A DNA stretch of 64,000 nt from Dehalococcoidia bacterium (GCA_963665775.2 CAXXTF010000002.1:1107231-1171230), one strand, 5' to 3'. Positions 53,455-64,000 are shown, numbered from the stretch's first letter. Made by a program: numbers and translations. The notes: a model not told the origin generated them from the letters alone.

Positions 53455-54570
53455 ATGCGCATCCTCGCCATAGACGTGGGCACCGGCACCCAGGACATCC
53501 TCCTGTTCGACTCCACGCAGCCGGTGGAGAACGCCCTCCAGATGATCATGCCCTCCCCCACGCAGATCGCCGCCGGCCGTATCCGGCGCGCCACCGGGGA
53601 GGGTCGCCCTGTCGTCCTCACCGGCATCATCGCCGGCGGCGGCCCCTGCCACTGGGCCCTGGAGGATCACCTGAAGGCGAAGCGCCCCGCCTACGCCACC
53701 GCCGAGGCCGCCGTCACTTTCGACGACGACCTGGAGGCCGTCGAGCGCATGGGCGTGACCCTCGTCTCCCAGGACGAAGTCGCCTCGCTGGACGCCGATC
53801 ACGTCGACCTGCGCGACCTGGATCTGCCCGCCATTCGCGCCGCCTTCGCCGCCTTCGATGTCGATACCCACTTCGATGGCCTGGCCCTGGCCTGCCTGGA
53901 CCACGGCGCGTCGCCCCCCGGCTACTCCGACCGTCTATTCCGCTTCGAGCACCTGCGCCGAGTGGTGGAGAGCCGCAACGACCTGCGCGCCTTCGCCTGC
54001 CTCCCCGATGAGCTTCCCGATTACCTCACTCGAGCCCGCGCCCTCGTCGCCGCCGCGGACGCCGACATCCCCACCGTCTTCCTGGACACCGGCCCGGCCG
54101 CCGCCTTAGGCGCCCTGCAGGACCCCCTCGTTGGCCAGGCGCCGGAGCAGCTCGTCCTCAACCTGGGCAACATGCACGCCCTGGCCTTTCATCTCCGCGG
54201 CACCCGTATCCACTCCCTCTACGAGCACCACACCGGCGAGCTCACGGCCCAGCAACTTGAGGACTTCAGCCAGCGCCTTATCACCGGCGACCTACCCCAC
54301 GAGGACGTCTTCAACTCCAAGGGCCACGGCGTCTACTATGTGGACCGCGACGGCGCCCGCAACCCCTTCGTCGCCGTCACCGGGCCACAGCGCGGCAAGC
54401 TCCGCGGCAGCTGCCTTGACCCCTACTTCGCCGTCCCCCACGGCGACATGATGGTCTCCGGCTGCTTCGGCCTCCTCTGGGCCTTCGCCGAGAAGCAGCC
54501 CCGGCAACGAGATGAGATCCTCACCGCCCTCGGCATCAGCGAGGTGCCGGCGGGGGAGTCAGTCGCGTAG
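53455..54570 (+). CDS. ASKHA (actin/sugar-kinase-like) fold protein, DUF1786-like
   Basis: The MRILAIDVGTGTQDILLFD phosphate-1-like N-terminus recalls DUF1786. The family name is from memory and is not verified. Confidence 0.4.
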   Translation: MRILAIDVGTGTQDILLFDSTQPVENALQMIMPSPTQIAAGRIRRATGEGRPVVLTGIIAGGGPCHWALEDHLKAKRPAYATAEAAVTFDDDLEAVERMGVTLVSQDEVASLDADHVDLRDLDLPAIRAAFAAFDVDTHFDGLALACLDHGASPPGYSDRLFRFEHLRRVVESRNDLRAFACLPDELPDYLTRARALVAAADADIPTVFLDTGPAAALGALQDPLVGQAPEQLVLNLGNMHALAFHLRGTRIHSLYEHHTGELTAQQLEDFSQRLITGDLPHEDVFNSKGHGVYYVDRDGARNPFVAVTGPQRGKLRGSCLDPYFAVPHGDMMVSGCFGLLWAFAEKQPRQRDEILTALGISEVPAGESVA

Positions 54571-54756
54571 CGCTCGCCCTGATCCTAGCAAAGTGTACCG
54601 CCAGGTCAGCCTAGACGGGATAGGAAAGCCCGCCTGCAATTCGAGTTCGATGAGGTGTAGGGGGGCACAGCTACAGCTGTTGTCTGGCCTAAAGTCCACC
54701 TTCCCAGCCTGACCCCCTTACAAAGCGAGGCCCAAGAGTAATAGCCAGGAGGATCA

Positions 54757-55344
54757 ATGATGGCGAACCTGAACCTGGACAAGAACCGGACTGCCGTGAT
54801 AGCAAGCGAGCTATCCAAGGGAAACTACGCCAACAATCAGATGGCTCAAGAGCGAAACCTCATTGGAAACGCCAGAAAGGTTATCGATGCCGCAAGGGCC
54901 GCCGGCATTCCCGTGATTCACGTGACGATCGGTTTCCGAGAAGGTTACCCCGAGATCAATGACCGTAACAAGCTGTTTCGCATGATCAAGGAGTCAGGTG
55001 GCCTCAAGGCCGGCAGCGAGCACGTGGCGTTCCACGACGACGTGAAGCCGGCCCCCGGTGAAGTGGTCGTCAGCCGCCCGCGAGTCAACCCGTTCTACAA
55101 CTCCGAGCTGGAGTCTATCCTCAAGGCCAGAGATATCGACACCGTGGCCGTTATGGGCATGCTGACCAATTTCAGCGTGGAGACAACCGTCCGCCACGCC
55201 GCCGATGCCGACTATCGGGTCATCCTTCTGGAGGACTGCTGCGCCAGCCAGCGGCGGGAGGACCACGACTGGACGATCGAGAACTTTCTCTCTCGTCTGG
55301 CCGACATCGCATCCTCGGACGATTTCGTCGAGAGCGTGCGCTAG
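54757..55344 (+). CDS. isochorismatase-family hydrolase
   Basis: IPVIHV..., then DTVAVMGMLTNFSVETTVRHAADADYRVILLED. A Ser sits where cysteine hydrolases of this family have the nucleophile Cys. Confidence 0.65.
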   Translation: MMANLNLDKNRTAVIASELSKGNYANNQMAQERNLIGNARKVIDAARAAGIPVIHVTIGFREGYPEINDRNKLFRMIKESGGLKAGSEHVAFHDDVKPAPGEVVVSRPRVNPFYNSELESILKARDIDTVAVMGMLTNFSVETTVRHAADADYRVILLEDCCASQRREDHDWTIENFLSRLADIASSDDFVESVR

Positions 55345-55683: not shown

Positions 55684-56631
55684 ATGCATGAATACATACT
55701 GAGAAGGCTCCTCTACAGCATCCCGGTAGTATTCTTCACGCTGGTAATAATCTTCCTGATCATCAACGCCATCCCCGGGGATGTAGTTGACGTCCAAACA
55801 GCCGGGACCACTCTTTCAGAAGAAGCGATCGCCGAGTACAAGCGCGAGGTTGGTCTGGACAAGCCGTTGCCCTTGCGTTTCTTCTCCTGGTTAGGCGACC
55901 TAGCCAGGGGCGATCTAGGAACGTCAATCTTCACCGGAGTGAAGGTGCAGACCGAGCTGGAGAGGAGGGTGCCTGTCACGCTACAGCTGGGGATTTTTGG
56001 TCTCACTCTGGCGATGATCATAGCCATTCCCCTGGGCATCATATCGGCCATCCGGGCTAACACACCTATTGACTACGTGGCCAGGTTCTTGGCCATCGGT
56101 GGCCTTGCCGTGCCGAACTTCGTCGTCGCCGTACTGGCCATACTCTTGCTCTCCAAATACCTGAACTACTTCCCAGGGGTTGGCTACGTGCTCCCGTGGG
56201 TCGATCCGGTGGAGAACTTTAGGCTGATGTGGCTGCCCGTGTTGCTCGTTGGCACAGCTCAATCGGCATCGGTCGCCCGCATGGTCCGCTCCACCCTTCT
56301 CGAGGTCCTCCATTCCGACTACATACGCACGGCCTGGTCGAAGGGCCTCCGGGAGAGAGCGGTCGTGATGCGCCATGCTATCAGGAACGCCCTGATCCCG
56401 GTGATCACGATAATCGGTCTGCAGGCCCGAGCGATAATCGGTGGCATCGTCCTTATCGAGATCGTGTTCGGCAAACCAGGAATGGGATCCTGGATGGTAG
56501 AATCGATCTTCCGTCGCGACCTCATTCCCCTCCAAGCTATCATCCTCCTTTTCGCCCTGACGGTAGTCGTGGTGAATCTGATAGTGGACATCTCCTATTC
56601 TTGGCTTGATCCGCGTATCAGGCTGAAATGA
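55684..56631 (+). CDS. ABC transporter permease (DppB/OppB-type)
   Basis: ILRRLLYSIPVVFF N-terminus and the EAA-type loop (YIRTAWSKGLRERAVVMRHAIRNALIPV). Confidence 0.85.
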   Translation: MHEYILRRLLYSIPVVFFTLVIIFLIINAIPGDVVDVQTAGTTLSEEAIAEYKREVGLDKPLPLRFFSWLGDLARGDLGTSIFTGVKVQTELERRVPVTLQLGIFGLTLAMIIAIPLGIISAIRANTPIDYVARFLAIGGLAVPNFVVAVLAILLLSKYLNYFPGVGYVLPWVDPVENFRLMWLPVLLVGTAQSASVARMVRSTLLEVLHSDYIRTAWSKGLRERAVVMRHAIRNALIPVITIIGLQARAIIGGIVLIEIVFGKPGMGSWMVESIFRRDLIPLQAIILLFALTVVVVNLIVDISYSWLDPRIRLK

Positions 56632-56642
56632 TGGTTTGAGAA

Positions 56643-57542
56643 ATGGCTGTGCAACAACCGAATGTGCTAGTGCGCAGGCAACTTCCCGTTCTCAATACGG
56701 CCCTATCCGTGGTACGGCCGGCCCGGCGCTTTGCCAGGCGCCAGCCTGTGGGATTCGTCGCGGTGGTCATCTTACTTACCCTCATCGTGATGGCCGTCAT
56801 CGGGCCGGAGATAGTCCCTTACGAGGCGACCGAATTTACCAGGGATCGGCTCGAGGCGCCCTCCTTGAAACACCCCCTTGGGACCGACCAGGTATCGCGC
56901 GACGTCCTGAGCCGCGTAATCAGCGGTGCCCGCGTCTCCCTGCAGGTAGGGCTCGCCTCCGTGGCTCTGGGCATCGGCGGAGGGGCTGTTGTGGGCGTGA
57001 CCTCAGGTTACTTCGGAGGTCAAGTAGACACACTGGTGCAGCGAATCATGGATGCCATGTTATCCTTTCCGTCGTTGGTCTTAGCGCTCGCCCTGGCGGC
57101 GGTTATGAACCCCGGCTTGACAACGGCCATCCTCGCCATAGGCGTCACCATCCTTCCCTCCGCCAATCGAGTGGTCCGCGGCTCCACGCTCTCCATTAAG
57201 GAGAACGTGTATGTAGAGGCGGCGCGCGCTCTGGGTGCGTCCAATCTGAGGATTATATTGTTGCACATCGTCCCGAACCTGTTCGCGGTGGTCATGGTGA
57301 TGATCTCCATAACGATGGGCGCCGCCATCATCATCGAGGCCAGCCTGTCCTTCCTGGGACTGGGCGTTCAGCCGCCCTCGGTCTCTTGGGGCGCGATGAT
57401 CAACTCTTCACGCGTATTCATGGAGGTCGCGCCCTGGCTGGTGTTGGTGCCGGGCATCGCGATCGCTCTCGTGGTACTCTCCTTCAACCTCCTTGGCGAC
57501 GCCCTCCGAGATTACTTCGATCCTAGCCTGAGGGGACGCTAA
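56643..57542 (+). CDS. ABC transporter permease (DppC/OppC-type)
   Basis: HPLGTDQVSRDVLSRV motif and the EAA-type loop (YVEAARALGASNLRIILLHIVPN). Confidence 0.85.
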   Translation: MAVQQPNVLVRRQLPVLNTALSVVRPARRFARRQPVGFVAVVILLTLIVMAVIGPEIVPYEATEFTRDRLEAPSLKHPLGTDQVSRDVLSRVISGARVSLQVGLASVALGIGGGAVVGVTSGYFGGQVDTLVQRIMDAMLSFPSLVLALALAAVMNPGLTTAILAIGVTILPSANRVVRGSTLSIKENVYVEAARALGASNLRIILLHIVPNLFAVVMVMISITMGAAIIIEASLSFLGLGVQPPSVSWGAMINSSRVFMEVAPWLVLVPGIAIALVVLSFNLLGDALRDYFDPSLRGR

Positions 57543-57674
57543 ATCTCCTGAAAATCGGCTCTGAAAATCGCCCCTGAAAACTATTGACCTAAGGACCCGA
57601 CCTGTCTAATATATGAAACCAATTAAGATACTCCACAGCAGGGGAACCCGCCGCAACGGATAAAGGAGGCTACA

Positions 57675-59597
57675 ATGGCAGGCGACAGCAGCTACTGGCA
57701 GCGATACTGGTCCAAGAGAGTGACGCGCCGGGGAGTGCTTCGCGGCGGCGCCGTGGCGGCCGCTGGCTTAACCGCGGCAGCCGTAGTGGGCTGCGGCGAC
57801 GATGATGAGGCGCCGGCGGCCACCACACCGGCGGCCACGGCTACACCGCAGGCTACGAATGGACAGGTAGCCGGGAGGCCCTACTTCCGAACCTACCCGG
57901 CGGCCCCTTCCTACTCCTCGTCCGCAAACCAGGCACTCCTTAGGGAGTTCCACTTCTCTGTAATCGGGCCACAGGTCCACGTGCTGGGGACACCGCAGCT
58001 GGGCGGCGTGTTCTCCCCGCAAACGTTCAACCCCCCACCGACGTTGCACCCGCTGGACCCGGCGGTCGCCAGCACCGGCCAGTGGCCGGGCGGTCCCTAC
58101 GCCGCCAACCTGGTGATGGCCGACTGGTGGGACGACCCAGAGCAGAACGGCCCCACCACTCGCTACGCCGTTTCCGAGTCGTTTGAGACGCCGGATCCTA
58201 CTACTTTCAACTTCAGGCTGCGTACGCCGCGGCCCTGGTTCCATGACGTCCCACCGGCCAACGGCGACCCGCTCACGATCGAGGACATTCAGGCCACGTA
58301 CGAGCTCTACGCCGGGCACAAGTTTTTTGAAGCGAACTTCAAGGACATCACCAGCATCACGGAGCCGGAACCGGGCCTCGTACAGATCAAGACCTCTCAG
58401 CCCGCGGTCCACCTCCTGGGCGCGCTGCGGAAGGAAGCCTTCACGATCCTTAACAGGAAGCTGATCGAGGAGGGTGACGAGGCGATGAACTCGAAGGCTA
58501 TCAGCCTCGGTGCCTTTACCCAGCACACGTTCATCCCGAGCCAGCTTCGCGCTTATAAGCGGAACCCCAACTGGTGGTGGCCCAAGGATCAGTTCGGCAA
58601 CCAGCAGCCGTACCAGGACGGCTTCACGATGAACATCATTGCAGACCCAGCCGCTGGCTTAGCGGCGTTCCGTACCGGGCAGACCGACTACTATAGGCCC
58701 AACAGTGTTGAAGAGTTCGACCAGCTGCGCGGTGACCTCGGCGATGATGTGTGGCCGTTCGCATCGGTCGGCCCCGCTAGCTCAACAGTTGCCCTTGTTC
58801 CTAGCATGCGCGACCCAGCGTTGCAGAACCCCAACGTGCGGCGGGCCATATCGATGGGGATAGACCAGCAAACAATCCTCGATGTTGTGTTTGGTGGGGC
58901 GGCCACGCCCCGCCCCTGGATCCCCTGGTACTTCCGGGGTCTCAAATGGCCGGAAACCCTGGATCAGATGGGCCCATACTTCAAGTTCGACCCGGAGGGG
59001 GCCAAGAACCTCCTCGCCGAAGCCAATGTCCAGACGCCGCTCAAATTGCAGATGTTTTTCACGGGAACGGTGGAGCAAGCGGGCGGTGGTGGTGTGTTTG
59101 CCACCGGAGACCCGTACGTGGAGCCGGCACGGCAAACTCTCAAGGACATCGGTATCGAGTTGGACCTCGTGCCTCAGGACAGGACGAGCCTGAGACTGAA
59201 AACCTTCGACGGCGAGTGGATCGGCATGGGGTCTATCAGCATTGGAACCAGCGCCGTAGACGCGGACGAATGGGTCCAACGGGCGGTGTCCGGCACCGGC
59301 TCCAACCCTAACGGGATATCAGACCCCAAGATAGACCAGTGGTTCCTCGACGAGCGGGCCGAGGTTGATCCCGTGGAGCGGGCCAAGATCTTCCAGAAGA
59401 TAGAGCAGTACGCGGTTCAGGACCAGCTGCTGTGGGGTCCGGTGATGCCCAGGATCTTCAGCCTGGCCCTGTGGAAGCGGTACGTCCACAACATGATTGA
59501 GACCTCCCTGTACACCATCAACGGCGGCCTGCAGTTCCAGCAGACCGAGGTGTGGTTGGATAGCAACGCGCCCTCGCGCGACATTGACAACCTCTAG
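57675..59597 (+). CDS. ABC transporter substrate-binding lipoprotein, family 5 (peptide/nickel/opine type), Tat-type signal
   Basis: Twin-arginine TRRGVLRGG followed by the lipobox VVGCG; 640 aa with family-5 SBP layout; strong SD AAAGGAGG. Confidence 0.75.
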   Translation: MAGDSSYWQRYWSKRVTRRGVLRGGAVAAAGLTAAAVVGCGDDDEAPAATTPAATATPQATNGQVAGRPYFRTYPAAPSYSSSANQALLREFHFSVIGPQVHVLGTPQLGGVFSPQTFNPPPTLHPLDPAVASTGQWPGGPYAANLVMADWWDDPEQNGPTTRYAVSESFETPDPTTFNFRLRTPRPWFHDVPPANGDPLTIEDIQATYELYAGHKFFEANFKDITSITEPEPGLVQIKTSQPAVHLLGALRKEAFTILNRKLIEEGDEAMNSKAISLGAFTQHTFIPSQLRAYKRNPNWWWPKDQFGNQQPYQDGFTMNIIADPAAGLAAFRTGQTDYYRPNSVEEFDQLRGDLGDDVWPFASVGPASSTVALVPSMRDPALQNPNVRRAISMGIDQQTILDVVFGGAATPRPWIPWYFRGLKWPETLDQMGPYFKFDPEGAKNLLAEANVQTPLKLQMFFTGTVEQAGGGGVFATGDPYVEPARQTLKDIGIELDLVPQDRTSLRLKTFDGEWIGMGSISIGTSAVDADEWVQRAVSGTGSNPNGISDPKIDQWFLDERAEVDPVERAKIFQKIEQYAVQDQLLWGPVMPRIFSLALWKRYVHNMIETSLYTINGGLQFQQTEVWLDSNAPSRDIDNL

Positions 59598-59939: not shown

Positions 59940-62540
59940 GTGGTAACAAGCGATCTAGCCAGCCCAGCTCATTCCCCGACCAAGTTGGGGGAAGGGAAGA
60001 CGATCCCCAGCGTCTGCCACCTGTGCGTCTACGGCCAGTGCGCTACGCTGGTGCACGTCGTTGACGGCGTGGCAGTAAAGATAGAGGGGAACCCCGAGGC
60101 GCCTCACAACGAGGGGAGGCTCTGCCCGAGGGGGAACTCAGCCATCATGGAGCTGTACGACCCCTACCGGGTCAAGGTGCCGATGAAGCGGACCAACCCG
60201 GAGAAGGGGCTGGATGTGGACCCCAAGTTCGTGGAGATCAGCTGGGATGAGGCCCTGGACATCGTGGCGGAGAAGCTGCGGGCCGTAAAGGAAGAGGATC
60301 CCAGACAGTTCCACTCCAGCGGAGGAATGGCCGGGGGCGGACTTGCGCGGGGGAGGTTCCAGTCCTTCTTCGGCGGAGCACCGATGCACATGTTCGGCGG
60401 GGTGGCGGCCTGCGGCAGTTCAGAGCACGCCGTCTCTACCTGGGCCCACAACGGCCACGTCTCAGGATACGATCCCGACTACGTGGAGCTGCTCATCCTC
60501 CAGGGCACCAACGCCGGCTTTGGCACCTGGCTGGGCGGCGCCGCCGGTGGCGGCGTGAGCCGGCTCGCGGACGCCCGGGCGGAGCGCGGTACCAGGATAG
60601 TGAGCATCGACCCCCGGTGCGGGGAGGGGGCGAACAAGGGCGAGTGGATACCGATAGTTCCTGGCACTGACCTCGCCTTCAACCTGTCTATGCTGCACGT
60701 GATCCTCCATGAGATGAACCAGTTTGACGTGGAGTTCGTGAAGCTCCACACCAATGGCCCCTACCTCATCCAGCCCAACGGACACTACCTGAAGGATGCT
60801 GACGGTAAGCCCTTGGTGTGGGACGCGGATCTTCAGGCGACTAGACCCTTTGATGACCCGGAGATCAAGGACTTTATCCTCGAGGGGTCTTACGAGATAA
60901 ACAGCGAGTCCTACAAGACGGCCTTCCAGATGCTGAAGGATCGGATGGCGCCGTATACGCCGGAGTGGGCGGAGAAGCTCACCACGGTGCCGGCTGCCCG
61001 GGTAAGGAGCCTCGCCGCCGATTTCGTGAAGACGGCGAAGATCGGGGCGACTATCAAGATAGACGGGGTGGTGCTGCCCTATCGACCGGCGGCGATGATC
61101 GGCTATCACGGCTCAACGCGACACTACAACGGCCCCTACACTACGATGGCCCTGCGTCTCATCAACTGCCTCATGGGTAACTACGACGTGCCCGGCGGCA
61201 ACAAGGGGATGCCGGAGATCGCTGCCCACCCGGAGATATATGACATGCCTCCCCAGACAGACGGCATGCTGGAGTTCATCCCTCCGTCAGAGATCAAGTT
61301 CCCGCCGGATCCAGACCTGAAGCAGTTCTACCCACTTGCGGTCGACTCCAACATAGTGTGGTTGAACTGGACCCAAAAGGACGCTGCGATGCGGGAGAAG
61401 TTCAAGATCCCGTACAACCTCAAGGTCCTCTGCCTGGGAGGCACGAACCCCTTCCGGAACCAGGGCGATCCCCGGCACACCGAGGAGATGATGAGGGCCA
61501 TCGACTTCATCTTCACCGTCTCCGTGTGGATCGATGACCCGGCCCTGTTCGCGGACGTGGTGCTTCCAGAGGATTGTGCTCCGGAGCGGCTCGAAGTACA
61601 CAAGTACAACGCTATGTTCCAGATTGGGCTTCAGGGGACCATGTTGCGCCAGCCGCTCGTGGGGCGCCTTTACGATACTCGGCATACCGACGAGATGGTG
61701 ATAGAGCTAACCGAGAAGCTGGGCATGCTGTACGGCGAAGGCGGCTACATCGACTTCTTGAATAGGACTCTCGGTGGTTTCTCGAACTATGTCCAGGACG
61801 CCGGGCCCGCAGAAGGCGATGGACTCCTGGACATTCACAAGAAGCCCACTTTGGAGGAGGTCGTCGACGCGAGGCTTAAAGCAGCGCGGGGCCAGGAGAA
61901 GGGGGTGGAGTGGTTCAGGGAGAACGGCTTAGAGTTCGACAAGCTCCCGGTCGAGAAGGATTACCACTGGGCACCCCTATCCGGGCGCCGCTTCCCCCTC
62001 TACTTCGAGCCGGTGAAAGAGTTGGGTGACTTGCTGAAGAAGAAGATCAACGAGGAGTACGGATGGGACTGGGACACCTCCTGGTACGACGCGCTACCAC
62101 GCTGGGAACCATGCCCAGAACATGATACAGAGAAGTTCCCTCCGGACTTCGATCTGTATGTTATGAATTACAAGACGCCGTTCAACACCAACAGCCAGAC
62201 CGGTGCTAACCCCTGGCTGAGTGAGGTGTTCGAGGCTGACCCCTACTTCCTGCGGCTCTGGATGCACGAGGAGACAGGGAAGAGAAAGGGGCTTCGCGAC
62301 GGCGACAAGGTCTGGATCGAGTCGACCATGGCGAAGCTGGAGGCGCGCGTGAAGCTGAGCCAGACAGTCCATCCCCAGGTCGTCGCGGTCGGCGGCGCCG
62401 GGGGGAGCTGGGCCACCAGCCCCTTCGCCAAGAAGGGCATCAACTTCGCCAGCCTGCTGCCACAGACGCCGGAGCAGATCAACCCTATGCTCTGTAACCT
62501 CGATTGGTGCACGCGAGTCAAGATCACAGTACGGCAATGA
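59940..62540 (+). CDS. molybdopterin (bis-MGD, DMSO-reductase superfamily) oxidoreductase catalytic subunit, cytoplasmic; paralog 1
   Basis: N-terminal Fe-S motif CHLCVYGQC-x27-C (CX2CX4CX27C), EISWDEALDIVAEKL, and the MopB layout with a C-terminal beta-barrel (GDKVWIES...ARVKLSQTVHPQVV). No twin-arginine signal and no in-frame stop. Confidence 0.75.
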   Translation: MVTSDLASPAHSPTKLGEGKTIPSVCHLCVYGQCATLVHVVDGVAVKIEGNPEAPHNEGRLCPRGNSAIMELYDPYRVKVPMKRTNPEKGLDVDPKFVEISWDEALDIVAEKLRAVKEEDPRQFHSSGGMAGGGLARGRFQSFFGGAPMHMFGGVAACGSSEHAVSTWAHNGHVSGYDPDYVELLILQGTNAGFGTWLGGAAGGGVSRLADARAERGTRIVSIDPRCGEGANKGEWIPIVPGTDLAFNLSMLHVILHEMNQFDVEFVKLHTNGPYLIQPNGHYLKDADGKPLVWDADLQATRPFDDPEIKDFILEGSYEINSESYKTAFQMLKDRMAPYTPEWAEKLTTVPAARVRSLAADFVKTAKIGATIKIDGVVLPYRPAAMIGYHGSTRHYNGPYTTMALRLINCLMGNYDVPGGNKGMPEIAAHPEIYDMPPQTDGMLEFIPPSEIKFPPDPDLKQFYPLAVDSNIVWLNWTQKDAAMREKFKIPYNLKVLCLGGTNPFRNQGDPRHTEEMMRAIDFIFTVSVWIDDPALFADVVLPEDCAPERLEVHKYNAMFQIGLQGTMLRQPLVGRLYDTRHTDEMVIELTEKLGMLYGEGGYIDFLNRTLGGFSNYVQDAGPAEGDGLLDIHKKPTLEEVVDARLKAARGQEKGVEWFRENGLEFDKLPVEKDYHWAPLSGRRFPLYFEPVKELGDLLKKKINEEYGWDWDTSWYDALPRWEPCPEHDTEKFPPDFDLYVMNYKTPFNTNSQTGANPWLSEVFEADPYFLRLWMHEETGKRKGLRDGDKVWIESTMAKLEARVKLSQTVHPQVVAVGGAGGSWATSPFAKKGINFASLLPQTPEQINPMLCNLDWCTRVKITVRQ

Positions 62541-62712
62541 CACCCTAGGCTGATACGTCAATGACACAGGTGGTAAACCTCTGGCGCGGAACCTGCCGTG
62601 AGAGGGGGTCCACGAGGCCGGCCTTACCAAGCGCAAGCGGTGCCCGTCCCGTTGGAGTTCGGGCCGCTCAGATCGCCATCATATACTCCTATCCGCAGTG
62701 GAGGTACGTATA

Positions 62713-64000
62713 ATGCTCTCCCCAACAAGTGCCGATACGACTGTCGCTAGGAAGCAGTTGGAGGACGGCAAGATAGTGCCCAGCGTCTGCCACCTCTGCG
62801 TCTACGGCCAGTGCGCCACACTGGTGCACGTCGTTGACGGCGTGGCAATAAAGATAGAGGGGAACCCCGAGGCGCCTCATAACGAGGGGAGGCTCTGCCC
62901 GAGGGGGAACTCAGCCATCATGGAGCTGTACGACCCCTACCGGGTCAAGGTGCCGATGAAGCGGACCAACCCGGAGAAGGGGCTTGATGTGGACCCCCAA
63001 TTTGTGGAGATCAGCTGGGATGAGGCCCTGGACATCGTGGCGGAGAAGCTGCGGGTGGTCAAAGAGGAAGACTCCCGGCAGTTCCACTCCAGCGGAGGGA
63101 TGGCCAGCTTCGGTCTCGCTCAAGGTTTGTTCCAGTCCTTCTTCGGTGGGGCACCGATGCACATGTTCGGCGGGGTGGCGGCCTGCGGCAGTTCGGAGCA
63201 CGCCGTCTCTACCTGGGCCCATAATGGCCACGTCTCGGGATTCGATCCCGACTACGTGGAGCTGCTGATCCTGCAGGGGACGAACGCTGGATTCGGCACT
63301 TGGCTCGGTGGAGCTGCCGGCGGGGGAGTCAGTCGCGTAGCCGACGCCCGGGTGGAGCGTGGCTTGAGGATCGTGAGCATCGACCCCCGGTGCAGCGAGG
63401 GAGGGAACAAGGCCAACGAGTGGATTCCGTTAGTTCCTGGCACTGACCTCGCCTTCAACCTGTCTATGCTGCATGTAATCCTGCATGAGCTGAATCAGTT
63501 CGACGTGGAGTTCGTTAAGCTCCACACCAACGGCCCCTACCTCATCCAGCCTAACGGCTATTACCTGAAGGATGATGACGGTAAGCCTCTGGTGTGGGAC
63601 GCGGATCTTCAGGCGACTAGACCCTTTGATGACCCGGAGATCAAGGACTTTGTCCTGGAAGGTACTTACGAAGTCAACGGCGAGTCCTGCAAGCCGGCCT
63701 TCCAGATGCTGAAGGATCGGATGGCGCCGTATACGCCGGAGTGGGCGGAGAAGCTCACCACGGTGCCCGGGGCCACGGTACGGCGGCTAGCTGCCGATTT
63801 CGTCAAGACGGCGAAGATCGGGGCGACCATCAAGATCGATGGTCTGGAGCTGCCTTATCGACCGGCGGCGATGATCGGCTACCACGGGGCGGAGCGCCAC
63901 TACAACGGACCATACACGGCGATGGCCCTGCGCCTCATCAACTGTCTCGTCGGCAACTACGATGTGCCAGGCGGCAACAAGGGGATGCCGGAGATCGCTG
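62713..64000 (+). CDS. molybdopterin oxidoreductase catalytic subunit, paralog 2; the 3' end lies outside the window
   Basis: The ATG at 62713 lies 8 nt after GGAGGT, and the frame stays open to the window end. I translated it by hand (MLSPTSADTTVARKQLEDGKIVPSVCHLCVYGQCATLVHVVDG...). It is collinear with paralog 1 and shares long identical nucleotide runs. Confidence 0.75.
   Translation, partial: MLSPTSADTTVARKQLEDGKIVPSVCHLCVYGQCATLVHVVDGVAIKIEGNPEAPHNEGRLCPRGNSAIMELYDPYRVKVPMKRTNPEKGLDVDPQFVEISWDEALDIVAEKLRVVKEEDSRQFHSSGGMASFGLAQGLFQSFFGGAPMHMFGGVAACGSSEHAVSTWAHNGHVSGFDPDYVELLILQGTNAGFGTWLGGAAGGGVSRVADARVERGLRIVSIDPRCSEGGNKANEWIPLVPGTDLAFNLSMLHVILHELNQFDVEFVKLHTNGPYLIQPNGYYLKDDDGKPLVWDADLQATRPFDDPEIKDFVLEGTYEVNGESCKPAFQMLKDRMAPYTPEWAEKLTTVPGATVRRLAADFVKTAKIGATIKIDGLELPYRPAAMIGYHGAERHYNGPYTAMALRLINCLVGNYDVPGGNKGMPEIA

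Follow-up and report, generated by a model that had tools for sequence, protein, structure and literature searches.

Tandem PadB-like molybdoenzyme genes in a Dehalococcoidia genome: a six-copy family and its likely iron-sulfur and anchor partners

The tandem genes and their products

We have analysed a 64,000-nucleotide (nt) stretch of DNA (the window) from a Dehalococcoidia bacterium, G000:C2:1107231-1171230, where G000 denotes a 2.35-Mb genome in 2 contigs (C1 and C2) that is 91% complete. At the 3' end of the window lie 2 adjacent genes of the MopB (molybdopterin oxidoreductase) superfamily, designated here paralogs A and B, which encode catalytic subunits similar to PadB of the phenylacetyl-CoA-oxidizing enzyme PadBCD. 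Paralog A occupies positions 59940..62540 of the plus strand and is complete, with 866 amino acids (aa), as judged from its open reading frame (ORF) and Pfam domains; it starts with GTG, preceded by GGAGGTG. A 172-nt spacer (62541..62712, plus strand) separates it from paralog B (P0001; 62713..64000, plus strand), of which the window holds the 5' 429 codons. The complete B gene, at C2:1169943-1172540, encodes 865 aa (start codon ATG, 62713) and ends at the equivalent of window position 65310; its ORF opens at either 62698 or 62713. No site resembling a promoter or a terminator came out of a simple scan of the A-B region. The Pfam domains Molybdop_Fe4S4 and Molybdopterin were detected in both genes, and Molydop_binding additionally in the complete copy, with scores of 46.0, 69.1 and 47.3 bits against cut-offs of 22.7, 24 and 26.8, respectively. 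The ORFs and domain matches therefore confirm what an earlier note, made on the window by itself, had described as two collinear neighbouring MopB genes at 59940..62540 and 62713..>64000.

Paralogs A and B are collinear, with whole-gene identities of 88% (nt) and 87.6% (aa). The longest exact run that had been noted between them, 104 nt (60108..60211 = 62881-62984, plus strand), was found at just these coordinates and is bounded by a mismatch at each end, so that no extension is possible; a second run, earlier given as about 70 nt, measures exactly 73 nt (60919..60991 = 63695-63767, plus strand). The offset between the genes changes from 2773 at the first run to 2776 at the second, and this shift verifies the claimed 3-nt indel and places it in the interval between them. 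Beyond the window end, the 2 genes share a further exact run of 137 nt and differ by a 6-nt indel.

Identical stretches of this kind, together with the multiple gene copies described below, might be suspected to represent collapsed or chimeric repeats produced during assembly, and repeats of 2.6 kb with 97-99% identity can indeed be misassembled. We consider such an origin very improbable. Because the tandem was recovered at 99.5% identity over 10.6 kb in an independent assembly (ENA ERZ25766400, contig_4), where a different insertion sequence (IS) element lies downstream, the A/B arrangement is real and not an assembly artefact. Further points against an artefact are that cluster members occur on contigs of several samples, and that each copy is an intact ORF with flanks of its own and with codon-level purifying selection. 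The gene call for paralog B is also identical in an independent assembly.

Neither A nor B has a twin-arginine (Tat) signal, as had been remarked before: no RR motif is present, and in both proteins the first cysteine of the cluster motif is already residue 26. From the absence of a Tat signal, both are predicted to be cytoplasmic proteins. The translated FS0 [4Fe-4S] motif of A is C26-x2-C29-x4-C34-x27-C62 (60015..60125, plus strand), and that of B has equal spacing (62788..62898, plus strand). When 119 homologues were aligned, C26 and C29 were invariant, and C34 and C62 were conserved in at least 90%. The motif is therefore present as the earlier note had read it, but its description as unusual did not survive the comparison, as x4 spacing occurs in 64 of the 119 family members and C-x2-C-x3-C in 53; the C-x2-C-x4-C form marks subfamilies and is no oddity. 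Tat signals were present in 16 other members of the family. A proposed metal ligand, the cysteine in GGVAACGSSEH (Cys158; codon 60411..60413, plus strand), falls in an alignment column that is invariant in all 119 homologues and corresponds to the cysteine of ArrA 'SSVCAE', that of PsrA 'SLCTAP' and a cysteine of PadB. By alignment, it is still the candidate ligand for Mo or W.

With respect to protein class, no NCBIfam equivalog model was matched at its cut-off, the best being PhsA (NF012032; 226.9 against 694) and ArrA (NF041714; 157.1 against 1600). The closest solved structures by profile were ArrA (6CZ7, E = 9.3e-94) and PsrA (2VPW, E = 3e-88), with acetylene hydratase (2E7Z, E = 6.6e-51) far weaker than either. 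ArrA and PsrA were also the best folds for an AlphaFold2 model of A (predicted local distance difference test score 89.9), at TM scores of 0.72-0.78 and with approximately 20% identity in the structure alignments.

Six copies and exchange of sequence between them

A search of the whole genome revealed 6 intact copies of the family, which together occupy approximately 0.7% of the 2.35 Mb, and the earlier view of an expanding paralog family was to this extent borne out. Besides the A/B tandem, they are copies C (C2:219128-221692), D (C2:58134-60698), E (C1:782385-784949) and F (C1:54043-56613, minus strand). Just one other MopB gene was found in the genome; this seventh gene was considered and rejected as a family member, being NuoG/FdhA-like and unrelated. 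At the protein level, C, D and E are 97-98.6% identical to one another, F is about 88% identical to these three, and the A/B pair shares about 76% identity with C-F, the value that separates 2 subfamilies. The repeated unit is approximately the gene alone, since upstream sharing extends over no more than 325 bp.

The ratio of nonsynonymous to synonymous substitution (dN/dS), one of the analyses that the earlier note had proposed, was 0.10-0.15 in all 15 copy pairs, and from this we conclude that all 6 copies are maintained by selection. By the same values, and with C, D and E so nearly identical, the description of the family as substrate-diversifying is unproven; the 3 near-identical copies are as suggestive of homogenisation or dosage as they are of diversification.

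The other proposed analysis concerned gene conversion. Under a uniform model at 88% identity, the longest exact run expected is about 45 nt. A Sawyer-type permutation test of runs, restricted to polymorphic sites, gave p = 0.0015 for A-B and p <= 0.001 for C-D, C-E and D-E. Between A and B, dS averages 0.44 and ranges from 0.06 (codons 30-90 and 660-720) up to 1.25 (codons 540-630), the top value being equal to the divergence between the subfamilies; the FS0 domain is the best-conserved part of the pair (dN = 0.007). Copy D is a mosaic of another kind. Its coding sequence is 98.6% identical to that of C, and the match begins 2 nt ahead of the start codon, while the 75 nt upstream of D resemble F; moreover, 22 of the private differences of D from C/E sit in alignment columns 154-548, and half of these 22 have the F state. 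Apparently, an F-type locus was overwritten by C/E-type sequence to give D. In copy E, 13 changes fall within a patch of 21 nt (columns 2079-2099), and 7 of the 13 match the A/B state. We regard the mosaic identity and long exact runs among the copies as clear signs of gene conversion, one of the two earlier suggestions, which is supported by the runs test, the dS range and the D/F flank mosaic. In a comparison of G000 with the sister strain L059, no conversion tract was evident since the strains diverged; the 4 differences in the B gene are isolated points amid many A/B differences that have been kept.

Several features of the flanks of the dispersed copies may be mentioned here. C and E have in common about 325 nt of near-identical upstream sequence (C2:218803-219127 and C1:782060-782384) with A+T-rich palindromic stretches (TATAATCACTGCATATAGTAATTATG), which may represent a shared regulatory region, and D and F have a different 75-nt proximal leader in common. 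A few kb upstream of D is a 1273-nt inverted repeat with 99.8% identity (C2:49884-51156 and C2:54195-55467), probably consisting of IS copies.

PadB relatives and candidate partner genes

Although a scan of species genomes with a single protein found no relative, a profile scan recovered Aromatoleum toluclasticum ATCC 700605, in which one locus (L074) has the gene order MopB, four-cluster iron-sulfur (Fe-S) protein, NrfD-like protein, FdhD, cyclase-like protein and PadE. The last of these matches the PadE equivalog NF045762 with 317 bits (cut-off 300). The pad cluster consists of padBCD, padEFGHI and padJ (PMC4453571), and PadBCD, as that source summarises Rhee & Fuchs (1999), is a membrane-bound Mo-Fe-S phenylacetyl-CoA:acceptor oxidoreductase. 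Because the cluster layout and the PadE equivalog both match, the A. toluclasticum MopB gene is identified, by position, as padB. Paralog A is 34% identical to this PadB (residues 6-863 against 4-845, E = 3e-148), with the C-terminal insert included. The earlier statement that A and B match no characterised enzyme thus needs to be divided: a full-length homologue exists in PadB, but orthology to it does not follow. In a tree of 98 members, inferred with FastTree only, the 6 copies formed a single clade with 100% support, sister to the metagenomic proteins P0003 and P0004 (57-59% identity). These, together with P0007, made up a clade with the 6 copies that stood apart from the PadB clade of Aromatoleum and Rhodocyclaceae, and homologues from genomes of the same order occupied a third branch. 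The placement is therefore beside the PadB clade and outside it, and the 6 copies are best described, on this tree, as PadB-like and not as PadB orthologues.

The family is widely distributed, with more than 3000 homologues in Chloroflexota, Actinomycetota, Bacillota, Pseudomonadota and archaea. A close homologue was found in none of 24 genomes of the same family as G000, and for this reason it appears that the G000 lineage specifically acquired these genes or kept them. A distant member was also seen, from ORF translations only, in the marine alphaproteobacterium Sulfitobacter sp. JB4-11 (L118; NZ_CP166251.2), where it appears to be followed by a 527-aa Fe-S ORF, possibly a fusion of Fe-S and anchor parts, and then by a PaaK-like ligase and subunits of a 2-oxoacid oxidoreductase, an arrangement that looks pad-like. 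In the same-order genome G029, a 2-oxoacid:acceptor oxidoreductase (OFOR) beside an operon for the catalytic (alpha), Fe-S (beta) and anchor (gamma) subunits was considered as PadG/PadE and rejected as generic.

We next describe the genes that may encode partners of A and B. G000 has exactly one NrfD-type gene and, beside it, one PsrB-like gene, both unlinked to the alpha copies. The PsrB/ArrB/PadC-like gene, P0122 (C1:552466-553122), encodes a four-cluster Fe-S protein in which the first cluster motif stands at the very N-terminus, with no signal peptide ahead of it. It lies directly upstream, with a 21-nt gap, of P0121 (C1:551383-552444), an NrfD/DmsC/PadD-like anchor gene with approximately 8 transmembrane segments. 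P0122 is 44% identical to PadC, and P0121 is 28% identical to PadD (E = 3e-20); no Tat signal is present on the alpha or beta subunits. The genome also contains 2 orphan TorD-type chaperone genes, genes for molybdenum cofactor biosynthesis and a haem-copper oxidase.

In relatives, genes similar to P0122 and P0121 stand next to family MopB genes. An Fe-S gene 22 nt behind P0004, which is 57% identical to A, encodes a protein 83% identical to P0122. A 3091-nt contig (L060; JGI 3300041077) carries the 3' end of a family MopB gene, then P0003 and, after 97 nt, an Fe-S gene that agrees with P0122 in the first 42 of 42 aa (96% of nt). In each of 3 genomes of the same order (G029, G033 and G037), a single operon contains the best matches of A, P0122 and P0121, and a P0121-like gene was found only in genomes with a family MopB, that is, in 4 of 41 searched. 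More generally, an Fe-S gene occurs within 500 nt downstream of MopB in 47 of 69 informative species loci. Tandem duplication of alpha recurs at L014, L060, L077 and L089; L014 has the operon MopB-MopB-FeS-NrfD, and at L060 tandem MopB genes are likewise followed by the Fe-S gene. From the recurrence of such operons, we take several alphas per beta-gamma pair to be an ancestral habit of the family.

On the evidence of these linkages, P0122 and P0121 are likely partners of the family alphas. The earlier picture of A and B as soluble enzymes with no partners is accordingly doubtful, in that a single P0122/P0121 pair is present elsewhere in the genome and its nearest homologues lie directly behind family MopB genes; the term 'soluble' is probably wrong for A and B. 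For workers annotating genomes, the case suggests that an 'orphan soluble molybdopterin oxidoreductase' may have its partners a chromosome arm or a contig away.

Some remnants of family genes were also noted. In G037, a second, orphan MopB gene (L064; G037:C1:908029-910775) is followed by a 70-residue remnant of an Fe-S gene, which shows how an operon, once duplicated, can end as an orphan catalytic gene. Downstream of the 6 copies in G000, no beta or gamma remnant was found. A possible alpha remnant upstream of the beta gene was rejected, as the match to L060 is confined to the beta coding start. At C2:376561-376688, on the minus strand, 42 codons remain from the 3' end of a MopB gene of the P0003 type, with identities to the end of P0003 of 71% (aa) and 79.7% (nt); we read this relic as a lost seventh member of the family, of the type that precedes an Fe-S gene in relatives.

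Proposed role, alternatives and genomic surroundings

On balance, we lean towards the view that the 6 alphas are interchangeable catalytic subunits of one cytoplasm-facing, PadBCD-like Fe-S/quinone module. A and B would be alpha subunits of a Mo/W-bis-pyranopterin enzyme, each with an FS0 [4Fe-4S] cluster and a Cys-ligated metal centre, and each most likely docking on the four-cluster ferredoxin P0122 and the eight-helix NrfD/PadD-type anchor P0121. The Fe-S chain would carry electrons from a cytoplasmic substrate to the quinone pool, from which they would enter the aerobic chain. The alpha gene would have become uncoupled from beta-gamma and then multiplied to 6 copies (the A/B tandem and the dispersed copies C-F), with the long exact runs between copies produced by gene conversion. 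What we infer here is the use of the beta-gamma pair by the 6 alphas, as well as the direction in which electrons flow and the nature of the substrate. Since Tat signals are absent and the host has an aerobic respiratory chain, we propose a quinone-reducing, cytoplasm-facing dehydrogenase or hydroxylase. Like PadBCD, it might possibly act on an activated methylene in CoA thioesters, but this substrate is a guess.

The genes that neighbour the dispersed copies offer hints to the substrate. Near F are 2 acyl-CoA dehydrogenases, a thiolase-like gene, a CoA-transferase III and an acyl-CoA ligase; E has a ChsH2/DUF35 neighbour, and a CoA-transferase III adjoins a chaperone gene. C is near a luciferase-like monooxygenase, and D is behind a DAO-type flavoprotein. 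An acetate-CoA-ligase-like gene on the minus strand (C1:50740-52460) is broken into ORFs of 390 and 194 aa, to which the N- and C-terminal portions of one NCBIfam model correspond, and this is either a frameshift or pseudogene, or a sequencing error.

Several observations weigh against the proposed sharing of the P0122/P0121 pair or against the proposed substrate. No alpha copy in G000 is linked to beta-gamma genes. The alphas that precede beta in relatives (P0003 and P0004) belong to the sister clade of the 6, and in G000 this type persists just as the 42-codon relic; furthermore, no beta gene is near alpha in 15 of the 69 species loci. The pair itself stands in a block (C1:549229-554582) of genes for an MFS_3 transporter, beta, gamma and an aldehyde:ferredoxin oxidoreductase (AOR) beside cytochrome b and Rieske genes, possibly a membrane-anchored AOR, and this order, free of alpha, was found in at least 7 independent assemblies. 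The 2 other AOR genes of the genome each adjoin a gene for a Fer4_11 protein of about 181 aa, and because these AOR genes have small Fe-S genes of their own beside them, the AOR of the block may be the enzyme that the beta-gamma pair serves, either by itself or together with the MopB subunits. For the substrate, the position of the 6 copies outside the PadB clade is unfavourable, and so is the finding that padEFGHI and padJ genes adjoin none of the copies, no whole-genome search for padEFGHI having been made. FdhD sulfurtransferase, which is part of the Aromatoleum pad cluster, was not found in G000.

Many of the same facts could be accommodated if the 6 MopB proteins were soluble, stand-alone enzymes, either linked to ferredoxin or flavodoxin or without redox function like acetylene hydratase, and if the Fe-S/NrfD pair belonged to the AOR. 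Such a scheme would explain why no copy has a partner gene near it or a beta or gamma remnant downstream, and it agrees with the conserved beta, gamma, AOR order, the pairing of the other 2 AOR genes with Fer4_11 genes and the species loci that have alpha without beta; in one metagenome-assembled genome of Thermoplasmata, moreover, an AOR gene follows alpha-beta-gamma. The scheme is at odds, however, with the presence of the best beta and gamma homologues in alpha-beta-gamma operons and with the confinement of gamma, among the 41 genomes, to the 4 relatives that have a family alpha. The strong conservation of the FS0 domain in A and B (dN = 0.007) and the weakness of the acetylene hydratase match relative to ArrA and PsrA also speak against it, and the gamma-AOR gap is 180 nt as compared with 21 nt between beta and gamma. 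We judge stand-alone enzymes to be unlikely, while allowing them a serious claim: the AOR block, the sister-clade position of the beta-linked alphas and the 15 loci without beta are the reasons why our preference for a shared module is only a slight one.

The top structure and NCBIfam matches to ArrA, PsrA and PhsA raise the alternative that the proteins are Psr/Phs/Arr/Soe-type enzymes of inorganic sulfur or arsenic metabolism that face the cytoplasm, such as a SoeA-like sulfite:quinone oxidoreductase, and the bSreA/SoeA lineage is both cytoplasmic and Cys-ligated (Wells et al. 2023, PMC10100899). We rate this as a poor prospect. The PhsA and ArrA scores (227 against 694 and 157 against 1600) are far under the equivalog cut-offs, PadB is 34% identical from end to end, with the C-terminal insert counted in, as against about 20% for ArrA and PsrA, and the genes nearby are those of CoA-ester and peptide metabolism, with no sulfur-metabolism genes among them. 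SoeABC and bacterial SreABC, which we compared by description only, do share with the G000 proteins a cytoplasm-facing, Tat-less, Cys-ligated MopB subunit with Fe-S and NrfD subunits; they differ in that the neighbourhoods in G000 relate to CoA esters and peptides and not to sulfur.

An extension of the shared-module proposal is that the single Fe-S/NrfD module is a docking hub for 7 catalytic subunits, namely the 6 PadB-like proteins and one tungsten-type AOR, which represent 2 families of pterin enzymes that are unrelated to each other. This is a speculative idea, to which we attach little weight. If it were true, the hub would equip an aerobic, small-genome member of the Chloroflexota with an exchangeable set of hydroxylases and dehydrogenases that work independently of oxygen, and would pass the electrons of varied organic substrates (CoA esters and aldehydes) to the quinone pool.

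Comparison with known systems places PadBCD nearest to the proposed module. The two share collinear, full-length homology of alpha (34%), four-cluster beta (44%) and NrfD-type gamma (28%), the lack of a Tat signal, by which the active site would face the cytoplasm, and a cysteine at the ligand position. Yet PadB has C-x2-C-x3-C in place of the C-x2-C-x4-C of the G000 family and belongs to a separate clade; the G000 alphas are 6 in number and unlinked to beta-gamma, they lack linked padEFGHI, padJ and FdhD genes, and their host has an aerobic respiratory chain. PsrABC (2VPW) and ArrAB (6CZ7) have the same Cys-ligand segment and the same plan of alpha, four-cluster beta and NrfD gamma, but are Tat-exported and periplasmic, unlike the G000 copies with their lack of an RR motif and about 20% identity. 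In E. coli, the periplasmic YnfEFGH system, encoded in one operon, has two catalytic paralogs (YnfE and YnfF) for a single YnfG/YnfH pair. It thus resembles the proposed system in having more than one paralogous alpha per beta-gamma module and a tandem duplication of alpha, whereas G000 has 6 alphas and none inside the beta-gamma operon. Acetylene hydratase is likewise a cytoplasmic, Tat-less MopB protein with FS0 and a Cys ligand, and the 2E7Z enzyme is free of partners. In contrast to the G000 family, however, it has about 730 aa and is without the C-terminal insert that the family and PadB have in common, and most members of the G000 family have an adjacent beta gene (47 of 69 loci).

PadBCD-like complex iron-sulfur molybdoenzymes (CISM) are known, and it is the unlinked, multiplied catalytic subunits that constitute a new variation. 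To our knowledge, PadBCD is the sole studied member of its radiation, with no solved structure and one substrate characterised. Water-dependent, oxygen-independent oxidation of a C-H bond beside a thioester is of interest for anaerobic degradation and for that of recalcitrant carbon. Six alphas with a single electron-transfer and anchor module would also provide a test case for the swapping of CISM catalytic subunits on one module, and the six-copy family one for the balance of gene conversion and divergence.

With regard to the surroundings of the tandem, the region upstream of A contains a peptide-type ABC transporter (55684..59597, plus strand), given here for context only, which consists of 2 permeases and an SBP_bac_5 binding protein; the order of transporter and A/B is kept in the independent assembly of L059. 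Farther upstream (53455-55344) are genes for a member of DUF1786, a family with the annotation 'putative PFL-activase-like', and for an isochorismatase-family hydrolase. The earlier observation that no Fe-S, anchor or chaperone gene accompanies A and B is true locally, within about 10 kb on either side. As for base composition, the family copies have a GC content of 0.587-0.611 as compared with 0.644 +/- 0.033 in long ORFs, and their third-position GC (GC3) is inside the interquartile range. The A/B block is only slightly GC-poor and no clear foreign island, and its earlier designation as a lower-GC accessory block must be considered weak.

Inspection of the sequence past position 64000 revealed the rest of B and, within about 10 kb, no partner genes. 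A tRNA-Ser(TGA) gene (C2:1172996-1173085) lies 450 nt past paralog B, and beyond it come genes for a SnoaL protein, a glyoxalase and a DDE_Tnp_1_4 transposase. The transposase/IS at C2:1176903-1178228 is 99.6% identical to an IS copy near paralog D (C2:48000-49113); in the sister strain L059, an IS3-type element is located downstream of the tandem in place of the G000 IS.

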